DNA from: Eledone cirrhosa
Lineage: Eukaryota
Direction: 5' to 3'
DNA length: 64,000 nucleotides
Assembly (NCBI GenBank): GCA_964016885.1
Contig: OZ024753.1
Span: 1,364,001 to 1,428,000 of the forward strand
In this document: one piece after another, positions 14,067 through 45,189 of the stretch
How the letters are laid out: the number at the start of each line of letters is the position of its first letter
How positions within the stretch are numbered: the stretch's first letter is position 1
Translations under genes and position numbers: made by a program
Notes under the pieces: generated by a model
Databases searched by the model: none
What the model was told of the DNA's origin: nothing
Seen by the model: the letters and a program-made list of their open reading frames with translations, nothing else

Positions 14067-14373
14067 ATTATAATGAAATGACAGGAGGCTGGATTTGTGT
14101 AAATCCTTGAAAGGTTTATTATACTATGATCATTTCATGATCATACGGAACCCGGTCATTGAAATGATCATAGTATAATAAACCTTTCAAGGATTTACAC
14201 AAATCCAACCTCCTGTCATTTCATTATAATATTTAACTCCGTAATAGCACCACCAACTACAAACACAAAGACGGTTGAACTGCTTTACGTTGAGTACTCT
14301 CTATATTATTGCATTACGATTGACCATACGGAATAGACCAGCTCTATACAGTGGTAAACCTCAAACCTGAATA
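14067..14373 (+). mobile_element. Foldback Penelope-like fragment in (TA)n
   Basis: 71-bp arms 14067-14137 and 14160-14230 (one mismatch seen) with a 22-nt spacer. The right arm begins with a hammerhead 3' half (GAAAUGAUCAUA). A unique tail runs to 14373, with TA on both sides. Confidence 0.55.
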
Positions 14374-14452
14374 AATATATATATATATATATATATATAT
14401 CAAAATGGCTGATTTCCGTTCGTTCCTCTTTTCACTCTCTATCTTTCAAGAG

Positions 14453-14650
14453 ATTGGCAGTATCGGTAGAGCACCGGACATCCTGCTTTGCATCATAGAG
14501 TTACGGCCCTTTACATTCTAAGGTTAGCCTTGCCTTTCATCCTTGCGGGCTCGATAAAATAAAGCACCAGTAATTCACTGGGGTCGATTTAATCGACTCC
14601 TCCCCTCCCTTCAAATTGCTGGCCTTGTGCCTAAAATAGAAACAATTATT
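14453..14650 (+). mobile_element. SINE family A
   Basis: TGGCAGTATCGGTAGAG head, core and tail. Confidence 0.8.
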
Positions 14651-15824
14651 TTACGTCCCTGTTACGTTCTCAGTTCAAATCCTGGGATCACTTTAGCATT
14701 CTTATCGTAAGGGTCTTTCAAATAAATACCTCTTATACAATAGAGACCACAAAAACACTCTTTGATTTTAAATGAATATTCATACAATATTGGTGGCTAT
14801 CAAGAGTGTTTTTGTGGTCCCCCTGTCTATCAAGGTTGATCTCATGTTCAGAATTGTGTGGTCGTTCTTCAATATGAGAAATTAATTATAGCCATTTTGT
14901 TTTTGTTTTTTAGTATGACCCGGCACCACAACATAGTTTCAGTTACCCAAACATTCTATCACAGCATGGAACTTATGAGACTTCTATTTCTCATTTTAAT
15001 TTCCATGTAAAAACAAATTGGGATTTAGTTTTCTTGTTTATATTTCATCAAATTACAAACCATGTAGAGAGTTGGCAGAATCGCTACAACGTCAGAAAAG
15101 TAGACATATTTGCGGTATTCGTTCCGACTCTCAACGATCTGACGTCAAATCATCAACGACCAACATCACCTCAGGCTTTCAGTAAAGTACCAGTTAAATA
15201 CTGGGTCGATTCTTACTTCCTCTCTCCTTCCCCAGCTCCACACACATTCTCTCTCTCTCTCTCTCTCTCTCTCGATATATATACACCTCTTTCTCTCTCT
15301 ATATATATATATATACATACATCTCTCTCTCTATATATATACATACATCTCTCTCTCTCTCTATATATATATATATATCTTTCTCTCTCTCTCTCTTTCT
15401 TTCTCTCTCTATCTCTCTCTCTCTCTCTCTCTCTCTCTCTCTCTCTCTCTCTCTATATATATATATATATATATATATATATATTTCTACCTCTCTTTCT
15501 CTCTCTCTCTCTCTATATATATATATATATATACTTCTACCTCTCTTTCTCTCTCTCTCTGGTGATGGGGGTTGATGGTGGTGGTGGTGAGGGGTTGACG
15601 GTGGGTGAGGGTGGAGTGAATTGGGTGACGGGTAGGTGGGGGTGGGGGGTGGGGGGGGGGGGGGGGGGGTGAGAGATGCCACCGCCATTCTTTGCCTCAT
15701 TCTACTAGAATTATCGCAGCTGCCCAGCCATTGTTTTGACTGTCTACGAGAAATACTTGAAAACTGGTGGACAGCGCCTCGTCTGTGTCCCGTCACATTG
15801 CTCCTCATTCTTCAAATGACATAA

Positions 15825-16241
15825 CCATCATCATCACCATCATCATCATCACCAATAGCAGCAGCCTCGTCATCATTGCCATTATCATTATTATCCTCAT
15901 TCATCATCATCATCATCACCACCACATTCATCATCCTCATCGTCACACCATCATCATCATCGTCATCAGCACTACTACAATAATCATCATCATCATCATC
16001 AGCACCACATTCATCAAAATCATCATCATCATCACATCATCATCATCACCATCATCACCACCACATTCATCATCACCATCATCACCATCATTATCATCAT
16101 CACCACCACATTCATCATCACCACACCAACATCGTCATACCATCATCGTCACATCACCATCATCGTCACATCATCATCATCAACATCGTCATACCATCAT
16201 CGTCACATCATCATCATCACCATCCACATCACCATCATCAC
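15825..16241. repeat. (CAT/CAC)n low-complexity tract
   Basis: Degenerate CAT repeats. Confidence 0.9.
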
Positions 16242-17134
16242 TACTTTATTATTTCCCTCCTTCTAGGTGTCCTGCAAAGATGTCTGCATGACTGAACTAC
16301 TAACTGAACAACAATAAAACTATGTGTGGTATTTCATGTTTTTATAACCCTGTAGACAACATGCAAGATGTATAGGTATGTATGCATGTAGACACACACA
16401 TATATATACATTTACATACATACATGGTGGCTGCCAACTCGTTTTCGAGTACGGCCACTACTTTATATCCATGTAGGAGAACCCCTACCGATGCGCTGAA
16501 CGAGTGTGACTTTTTAGTCCAGCCAGCGACTTGAAAACTCTGGTACAAACACTACACTTGTGACAATTATTGACACATAGTGCTGGGCCCATGGTACCAT
16601 GTGACGACAAGTGCAGAGAGATCTCCAGATATAAAGCAATGCCTGTGCCGTGAAGCTTTTATACATACATACATAACACAACTAGTTAGGAAATTACAAG
16701 TACAATCCATTAATGGAACAGTAAAAATATGTCAAACATTCCAAAAATGTTGCATCTATAACTGCATATACACATGTACAGATGCAAAGCATATACACAT
16801 GCACACATACAACTCAAAACATCCACATCGACACCTACAATAACATTCATATCTACACATGCACACATACATATCTACCTAGTTGATGTTGTGTAAATTC
16901 CAATGAAAGAGTCTTGTGTCTATGTTAGAAACCGACTCTCTCTTTATTGGGAAAAAATTTGTGAAATTATAAAACCAGAAGAACATACATACATACATAC
17001 ACACACACATATGTGTGTTTATATATATATATTTTTTCATATTACCCACTCTGCTACCTCAAGTATCGAGTACTCTGGTGAGTAATGGTCTAACTGGTTT
17101 TTACTGCTTCCAATCTGATATATATATATATATA

Positions 17135-17251
17135 TTGTTTCCGACAAAGACGGTCTGATCGAACTTATATATGAAGTCTGATAGTATACAGTTATTATAA
17201 CTGCTATAGATCAGTCAATATGATCAACCCTCCGAAACGATCGTAAAACAA
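17135..17251 (+). ncRNA. Degenerate hammerhead with long stem II
   Basis: UUGUUU-CCGACAA...GAAACGAUCGUA^AAACAA. Perfect 6-bp stem I and palindromic stem III ACGATCGT, but two substitutions in the CUGANGA box. Confidence 0.45.
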
Positions 17252-43254: not shown

Positions 43255-43440
43255 ACCGTTTTACGTCCGTTCTTCCATGCTAGCATGGGTTAGACGGGTT
43301 GTCCTGTTGTGGGCAGTGTCTGGTCGGCTGACCATGCCTTGCTCATACAGGAACTGATTCTGGCTTGATTTCTACAGCTGGATGCCCTTCCTAACACCAA
43401 CCTCATTTACAGTGAGTGCTGGGTGCTTTTTTCCGTGGCG
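43255..43440. repeat. Dispersed repeat with a GGATGCCCTTCCTAAC core next to (CAT)n
   Basis: Inverted copies at about 62360-62570 and 48815-48955; end fragments at about 41123 and 41685. Confidence 0.6.
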
Positions 43441-43527
43441 CCTACACGACCACTTTGCAGTGGGAGGGTGTGGGGGCATATTGTCTATATATATATAGTT
43501 ATGTAATAAACAACATAAGATAATTAT

Positions 43528-43588
43528 TTCATTTACCACTGGTTTCTTGAAGACAGATTTTATGTCTGTCTTCATTCATCAGAAAGAA
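43528..43588 (-). ncRNA. Type-I hammerhead ribozyme motif in a foldback insert
   Basis: Minus strand reads UUCUUU-CUGAUGA-A-UGAAGACAGA(loop)UCUGUCUUCA-A-GAAACC(AGU)GGUA^AAUGAA. Intact core boxes, 10-bp stem II, GUA triplet, stem I 5/6 paired. Confidence 0.68.
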
Positions 43589-44829
43589 TAATATGTAAAT
43601 GAAATAATTATCTCATGTTGTTTATTACATAACTAGAAAGCTCTGTAGCCTACATAGGGCCCTCTCTTTTCTTTACCTTTCCTACGGAAATACTTCATTT
43701 ATATATATATATGTGTCCAACGATACAGGCTCATACTAAGTTTGTCCAGATGTGAAATGTAACCCCTTACTCCATTAAGTGATTTAGAAATCAGTGATAA
43801 ATATATATGATCTGTAAATATGGGTTACAACATGTACATGTAGAAGTAACACAACATGTACATGTAGAAGTAACACAACATGTACATGTAGAAGTAACAC
43901 AACAGCATAAAAGTAGTAGAAATTGAAGCGGAAATGTTACGTCTCTGTCAAACAGCCACCTTCTCCACCCACATACTTCTCTGGCATATACAAATATATT
44001 TGTTGGAGTGGCGATGGAGCGACACATTCTCCAGCGGCAACATGGTGCAGTCTGCAACTAACCCAGGCTCTGCTGCACTTCGGACCGAGGAGGGTAGGGT
44101 AAACTCTTTAAATATCTGTCGTTCTCCGGCAGGTTTGCGGTCCAGGCCCTGGCAGTGGAGACTTCTTGTGTCCTTGGCCCTAGGGCCACCTCCCTGCTCA
44201 CCACCATCAGCACAGAGTTAGCTACCCACAGGTGTGAGCCTTCAGCGCATCTTCCTCACCATCCTTCGGGGAAACGCCTTTTCTATTCTGTCCGCCGGGG
44301 ACCGCGGGGCGGCCAGCGCATGGGGCCCCCATTTGCTCTAAATAGTGAGAGATGGGGAGAGCAGGAGAGACGGTGACAGTGAGAGTTTAGTTCCTTTGTG
44401 CTCGGACCTGATGTTTATATAGGTTTCATGGACACACACTCCCACTGAGACTGATACATATAAAACCGTTACAACCTACACTGTCATACTAAGTTTGATC
44501 TAAAATACAAATCCTTAGTTTTACCCTCACTACCATTCTACTCCTGCGTTCTGGCTTATTTTATTTGCTTTTTAGTTTCCTTAATGCTATAGAATTTATG
44601 AATCCTGGTAAATTCCTCAGAGATCTTCATATCCCTCCACTCCTTGTTTTTCTATTTTCAATTCCATGAACATCCATTGTACTGAGAAAGATGTATAAAA
44701 CCTTTAGCTACACTTTAAGTTATTAAGTTATACACAAGGTGTACCCAAAAAAATGTACACATATTTATTAGAATTTTGTTGAAATATATATATATATTTC
44801 AACAAATATATATATATATATATATATAG

Positions 44830-44998
44830 GCTCAAGCCGTTTCGACGGCTATTTCTGGACTAGTCCAGAAATAGCCGTCGAAACGGCTTGAGCTCTGCCG
44901 TCGGGGCCAAACATTTTCCTATGACCCACTCTACAACCCTAAGTATTGAGTACTCTGATGCGTTATGGTCCATCTGGTTCCTTACCACACCTCCTTCG
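44830..44998 (+). mobile_element. Foldback Penelope-like fragment with a perfect 64-bp palindrome, in (TA)n
   Basis: 44830-44893 is a loopless palindrome centred on GACT|AGTC and contains CGAAAC. Its tail resembles 17032-17117. Confidence 0.55.
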
Positions 44999-45050
44999 TT
45001 ATATATATACATATATATATTTATATATAAATATATATATATATATATAT

Positions 45051-45189
45051 ATATTCATTTTATTAAGGTTAAATAGTGAGTCAGGGTTTTTTGGGAGTTT
45101 CGCCTGTTTATAAACAGGCAAAACTCCAGAGTAACAAGACTCACTATTTAGCCTTAATAGAATGAATATTAAAACTCTACTTCGGTATT
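45051..45189 (+). mobile_element. Foldback Penelope-like fragment (paralog of 42695-42812)
   Basis: Imperfect palindrome centred at 45110/45111 (GCCTGTTTA|TAAACAGGC), followed by a hammerhead 3' half (G/A)AAACTC-CA-GAGTA. Confidence 0.55.

Follow-up and report, generated by a model that had tools for sequence, protein, structure and literature searches.

Head-to-head fold-backs of hammerhead-bearing retroelement stumps in Eledone cirrhosa, with a plausible hairpin hotspot for joints in one family

Endonuclease-bearing (EN+) Penelope-like elements are known from inverted 5'-truncated copies, one-sided tails and (TA)n targets, which are standard for them in the available parts of Craig et al. 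2021 (PMC8557442). Palindromes of 18 and 38 bp occur at pLTR 5' ends in Adineta, and palindromes at inverted junctions were there read as traces of self-priming (Arkhipova et al. 2013, PMC3846280, in part). Metazoan Penelope-like elements also carry pairs of hammerhead ribozymes on opposite strands, 100–700 bp apart (Cervera and de la Pena 2014, PMC4209133, in part). In vitro, the protein of the Anolis element Poseidon nicks AT-rich DNA on both strands and extends each of them; reverse transcription begins at two sites, one at either border of the tail, and ribozyme cleavage is dispensable in that assay (Frangieh et al. 2024, PMC11167929, in part). The available parts of a retrozyme preprint (bioRxiv 10.64898/2026.07.22.740005) and of PMC6962438 hold nothing further on junctions. 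Here we analyse a 64,000-nt stretch of the genome of the octopod Eledone cirrhosa (assembly GCA_964016885.1, contig OZ024753.1, positions 1,364,001–1,428,000, forward strand; hereafter the window), in which an earlier note had described palindromes centred in stem II of hammerhead motifs and had proposed one snap-back mechanism for all of them. Four fold-back families, A to D, are real head-to-head stumps of hammerhead-bearing retroelements that likely belong to the Penelope-like class. This type of insertion is already known; what is plausibly new is a family-specific hairpin hotspot for the joint, found in one family and accompanied by a counterexample in the same window.

Fold-backs and hammerhead halves in the window

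The window has a GC content of 37% and is rich in tracts of (TA)n as well as in interspersed repeats of short length. An ungapped palindrome scan returned eight non-microsatellite palindromes, to which gapped self-comparison added one more. All the palindromes named in the earlier note exist, A, B1 and C in the ungapped scan and B2 as a gapped self-match, and they are TA-flanked as it had said: (TA)n adjoins the left arm of A, B1, B2 and C, a TA run lies at the left of D, a fold-back absent from its list, and the flanks are TA microsatellites.

Fold-back C (44830–44893) consists of perfect 32-nt arms without a loop about an axis at 44861|44862. Its hammerhead 3' half (44880–44909, + strand) comprises GAAA, a 4-bp helix III with a 9-nt loop, GUC and the 3' strand of helix I, and the C at position 11.1 is present. 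The inverted arm is short, and its outer end falls at none of the common 3' ends of the family. Centred in the TA run left of C, the flanking target DNA forms a perfect fold-back of its own with 16-nt arms (44775–44806), which may be a by-product of C's insertion and hints that self-complementarity is enough for an end to fold back. In family C a predicted alternative fold, a 6-bp hairpin at 44873–44888, could sequester the GAAA box and so obstruct the ribozyme core.

Fold-back A (14067–14230) pairs arms of 71 nt, with a single mismatch, across a 22-nt centre. Its hammerhead 3' half begins past the axis at the GAAA box at 14161, helix III is fully palindromic, and position 11.1 is T rather than the C of the G10.1–C11.1 pair in minimal type I hammerheads. 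The segment 14138–14145 in the centre is an exact 8-nt copy of the helix III palindrome (14165–14172); because this copy occupies the place of the mirrored stem, the centre is no clean mirror, and the filler looks templated. To the right, A continues on one side only for ~148 nt to the next (TA)n (14231–14378, + strand), a segment that may hold more than a tail.

Family B is represented by B1 (42695–42792; 35-nt arms, two mismatches and a 22-nt centre in the ungapped scan at 42698–42789) and B2 (45051–45169; an 83% gapped self-match with its axis at 45110|45111 and 13 of 14 inner pairs formed). The axis of B2 lies inside a 9-bp perfect palindrome that closes at a mutated GAAA box (45120–45123). 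This right-arm box is mutated in both copies and is readable only from the left arm of B2; GAAA, helix III and NUH together are recovered only by combining the two arms of B2, in which the C at position 11.1 is present. Past the axis, the 3' half is directly readable in A and C (GAAA at 44880). A one-sided tail of ~70 nt follows B1 (42793–42860, + strand) and has a motif in common with the tail of C; a motif found 5 nt past the tail-less end of C lies 4 nt beyond the end of the arm of B. The left arm of B1 is ~21 nt shorter than that of B2 at the centre. Both copies are preceded by the left half of one short inverted-repeat element, and the two halves, broken at one point, match at 92% over 73 nt, with other local duplications nearby. 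Since the outer end is common and the preceding half-element is cut at the identical place, we count B1 and B2 once, probably as one duplicated event. The short element, similar to miniature inverted-repeat transposable elements, is found at 55245–55305, 45588–45659, 42624–42692 and 44725–44797, two copies being whole and two cut at one point by the TA runs that precede B1 and C/B2.

Fold-back D (1256–1767) is the longest and least diverged in the window, with identical 253-nt arms around a 6-nt centre (1509–1514). Its right arm contains an intact minimal type I hammerhead (1569–1603, + strand; descriptor match, fold computed) with CUGANGA, a 6-bp helix II, GAAA, a 1-bp helix III, a 5-bp helix I and the C at position 11.1, and the left arm contains the mirror copy (1420–1454, − strand; descriptor match). 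A one-sided tail of ~57 nt (1768–1824, + strand) precedes (TA)n. The axis of D, in the loop, lies ~55 nt upstream of the CUGANGA at 1569, outside stem II, which makes D a direct counterexample to the stem II rule.

The breakpoint rule that the earlier note drew across unrelated families is broken by D. The axis lies near a hammerhead 3' half in three of four independent in-window events, one of them imperfect. Among the 22,416 non-microsatellite positions of the window, a strict 3' half is as close as ~20 nt in only 2.1%, so that the association of axis and hammerhead exceeds chance. The window by itself offers only a circular argument for placement inside stem II, since in any fold-back whatever precedes GAAA takes on the look of a stem. 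Within the 64 kb no relative of A, B or C carries CUGANGA, and pattern scans for relatives gave no match in viral contigs, metagenome contigs or prokaryote genomes.

A descriptor search of the window for hammerheads returned three matches, two of them in D. Compared with the minimal motifs in the available parts of PMC4209133, D agrees in its unpaired base after the box, G-C closing pair, long helix II and short helix I, whereas no more than the 3' half remains in A, B and C. The hammerhead of D gives no match to the Rfam hammerhead model, and no Rfam hammerhead appears among the 150 of 280 matches listed or in a further Rfam check; the Rfam matches listed are of microRNA type only and fall on hairpins and microsatellites. 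In PMC4209133, as far as its available text goes, minimal hammerheads were likewise defined by descriptor and not by Rfam. Two TA-ended copies at 18035–18308 (− strand) and 56664–56937 (+ strand), 91% identical, carry a decayed hammerhead-like motif and no fold-back. At 17234 (+ strand) an isolated, TA-flanked hammerhead-like 3' half has a palindromic helix III, with an imperfect palindrome ~40 nt upstream.

The architecture of these insertions resembles that of EN+ Penelope-like units, with head-to-head arms, a tail at a single end, microsatellite targets and junction palindromes, and the occurrence of inverted 5' segments in Penelope insertions, stated in the earlier note, agrees with both published accounts (PMC3846280, PMC8557442, each in part). 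Inverted 5'-truncated copies joined head to head are present in the fold-backs and in family C joints, one-sided extensions in B1 and D, and TA- or AT-rich targets also at the loose ends of family C. In contrast to the published units, as their available descriptions go (PMC3846280, PMC8557442), only non-coding stumps of 60–310 nt are found here, and the tails measure 57–77 nt rather than 30–40. No reverse transcriptase or GIY-YIG endonuclease frame was seen by eye among the 34 stop-to-stop open reading frames of at least 170 amino acids in the window, so the Penelope-like assignment derives from non-coding features.

Recurrence of the family C joint in reads

Reads were searched for family C, one of the four families, with 44828–44999 as query at 80% likeness. 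The material comprised contigs from the sample carrying the locus (X4) and raw restriction-site-associated DNA (RAD) reads from two other samples under the same species label (X7 and X8); in another species (X2) matches fall mostly in the tail (144 contigs) and are uninformative on the axis, and in runs X1–X3 only 0.05–0.06 of words are present. Details of individual events come from the best-supported joints (15 of 46) and loose ends (24 of 515), and from 16 listed records (of 16,433) and 11 listed indel rows. The family is very abundant, with 16,149 contigs in X4, 20,063 reads in X7 and 20,820 reads in X8. Its copies terminate at ~44999 or at 44922, a shorter variant stopping after 44906, and TA repeats come next in each case. 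The 77 nt between the first two ends, 44923–44999 (+ strand), form an optional tail.

Read depth leaps at the axis of C, from 238 at 44860 to 2,093 at 44861 in X7 and from 253 to 2,079 in X8, and stands at ~12,600 reads per RAD run over the hammerhead 3' half. Fold-backs centred within 6 nt of the window axis recur with several different centres, in X4 contigs as well as in the raw reads of X7 and X8. Seven of the 11 listed indel rows fall at 44856–44862 (83 X4 contigs, 61 X7 reads and 67 X8 reads) and represent five different deletions of 3–6 nt and one insertion. Diverged copies that run across both arms at 84–89% identity make up three of the 16 listed records (X4 records 9–11). Among the best 15 of 46 joints there is no near-symmetric fold-back elsewhere: 14 of them, mirrored, join breaks at 44861–44874 to breaks at 44914–44962 and are asymmetric by 40–100 nt, and the fifteenth, away from the stem, is asymmetric by 51 nt.

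Loose ends before 44861 number 104 in X4 contigs and 939 in X7 reads. Taken as a consensus, 77 X4 loose ends before 44862 share 17 of 30 letters with the inverted arm, the X7 and X4 consensi are equal at 14 of their last 15 letters, and the outer loose ends match the complement of the 44861–44873 strand at nine of ten letters in X7 and nine of 13 in X4 (all by eye). The simplest reading of these letters is a parent element with a long stem of up to 19 bp that ends at GAAA and carries an AT-rich loop of 16–17 nt. The stretch 44861–44879 (+ strand), whose complement was checked, would then be the likely 3' strand of stem II, and the window copy would have lost the loop, with both strands sharing the TA at 44861–44862. 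Because the loose ends point to such a hairpin, the axis of C is likely the tip of stem II. The location of the axis inside stem II, which the earlier note had claimed throughout, thus gains partial support in C, where it was tested, and fails in D. A helix II of up to 19 bp would exceed the 7–8 bp given in the available parts of PMC4209133. The junction palindrome of C is tied to a hairpin closing at the hammerhead GAAA, a relation unstated in the available parts of PMC3846280 and PMC8557442; the literature searched, mostly non-subscription, yielded no link between inversion point and stem II, and supplements or subscription papers may bear on it.

Two features of the depth profile were set aside. 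The fall in depth across 44862–44880 might suggest that most copies are truncated in stem II, but X4 shows a similar ramp at the untruncated 3' end; a further step at 44872–44874 in X7 and X8 (~7,000 reads) is seen in one mate direction and adjoins a common variant, which appears to create a four-base restriction site. Depth ramps being confounded by contig edge effects and this probable restriction site, we make no claim of widespread truncation in stem II. A second recurrent break lies at 44914–44915 (five of the best 15 of 46 joints) and could be an alignment effect of a divergent patch. The one older C relative in the window (17034–17135) begins beyond the ribozyme half, after a TA run, at the place equivalent to 44914–44915.

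Other features of the window

An uninterrupted 596-codon frame at 39185–40975 (+ strand) in repeat-rich DNA is possibly an intronless gene. It matches no Pfam family at E 0.001 and carries a motif that we take to be that of PI-PLC X-domain proteins. An 18-nt perfect inverted repeat surrounds 39 nt at 14745–14819, with no hammerhead feature seen, and self-comparison places tandem arrays at 22319–25267, 8951–9982 and 32528–33012.

Joining of truncated cDNA ends

We consider it reasonably probable that these fold-backs arise by hairpin-guided joining, for which a long stem II is a hotspot rather than a rule. The element's protein would nick both target strands, and cDNA would start at one of two sites 57–77 nt apart, so that just one of the two arms would receive a tail. 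Any available complementarity would then serve to join the 5'-truncated cDNA ends. A long stem II would offer the strongest complementarity close to the start sites, so that near-symmetric joins would gather at its tip; a cDNA end that stops at the hairpin tip could pair with the complementary strand, which is probably why the join recurs. The partner would likely be a second cDNA in long-armed copies (A, B and D) and the same strand, by snap-back, in short-armed copies such as the C of the window. With a short stem II, as the 6 bp of D, the join could fall elsewhere, and ribozyme cleavage would not be required. The structures, the recurrence in family C and the counterexample D are observed directly; the class of the elements, the identity of stem II, stalling and the route of priming are inferred.

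The arm of B, which ends at the position of the tail-less end of C, and the one-sided tail of D fit two separately primed and then joined cDNAs, although the end of B could also have arisen if an endonuclease trimmed a snap-back hairpin there. The short arm of C, which ends at none of the common ends of its family, fits snap-back. In twin priming of L1, two cDNAs started from the two target strands are joined by microhomology to give a 5' inversion; there the second primer anneals internally and the arms have no common 3' end, whereas both arms carry the 3' end here. The far 3' end of C, ~120 nt past GAAA, is on a scale similar to that of Poseidon, the available account of which is silent on the 5' junction and on where inversions form (PMC11167929).

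Several observations weigh against hairpin-guided joining at stem II. An upstream CUGANGA is not visible for A, B or C, the 30-letter display for C stopping short of it, and the stumps, which carry no attached reverse transcriptase or endonuclease frame, are too short to hold one. The hotspot was tested with reads in only one of four families, and even there the inverted arm is represented by ~190 of 12,600 X7 reads, ~1.5% of the plateau, so that symmetric fold-backs are a minority among C copies. The tally of joints is skewed toward 44861, since the reference ceases to resemble the parent there, and the clustering is one-sided because this reference cannot reveal an axis upstream of 44861 and the rows considered are the best-supported ones. 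Loose ends agree at only 0.46 (X7) to 0.53 (X4), no listed identical record spans the whole of the window's own C copy, and the varied centres of C could be later deletions at the palindrome tip.

The general form of the earlier proposal, in which every family follows one course, a cDNA halting within the ribozyme, snapping back on stem II and priming its own second strand, strikes us as unlikely. The three of four events near a hammerhead half would have a binomial probability of 0.0005–0.009 for stumps of 150–400 nt, chosen post hoc; the 32-nt inverted arm of C with its unmatched outer end and the recurrent near-symmetric centres of that family speak for snap-back as well. Self-priming at junction palindromes is not new, having been proposed in 2013 (PMC3846280, in part). 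The general form is opposed by the intact hammerhead in both arms of D, by the filler that stands in A instead of a mirrored stem, by the asymmetry of all of the best 15 of 46 joints, and by the arm of B, whose end matches a start site and suits a second cDNA. The centre of C also lacks the loop that plain snap-back on the whole hairpin would presumably keep.

It is quite improbable, in our judgement, that clustering instead reflects descent, with one or a few palindromic masters per family amplified and the centres altered by later tip deletions. Such deletions are known in perfect palindromes; B1 and B2 do look like one duplicated event with different centres, and some central deletions reach summed depths in the thousands, up to 13,000 in 23 contigs. 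The depth of the inverted arm of C, though, declines gradually from 44851 to 44830 and fillers vary among joints, which suggests differing arm lengths, and the asymmetric joints pair the same zone with many different partners. Chimeric reads or assembly errors are a far-fetched source of the palindromes. The window's C copy is reproduced end to end by no listed record, and the read check covered C alone, but the arms of A, B1 and B2 differ by substitutions and indels, diverged C fold-backs occur in contigs, and the central indels appear with several read starts in raw short reads of two other samples.

Beyond hairpin-guided joining in family C, a long stem II may be the main 5'-end joining device across Penelope-like families, cDNAs stopping at its tip and pairing through the stem, an extension that we hold to be doubtful. 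If the extension is true, the hammerhead would shape insertion structure by base pairing and not by cleavage, a non-catalytic role for a motif whose cleavage is dispensable in vitro. In a family of thousands of copies with a recurrent join at the stem II tip, counting in one assembly could separate snap-back from twin priming.

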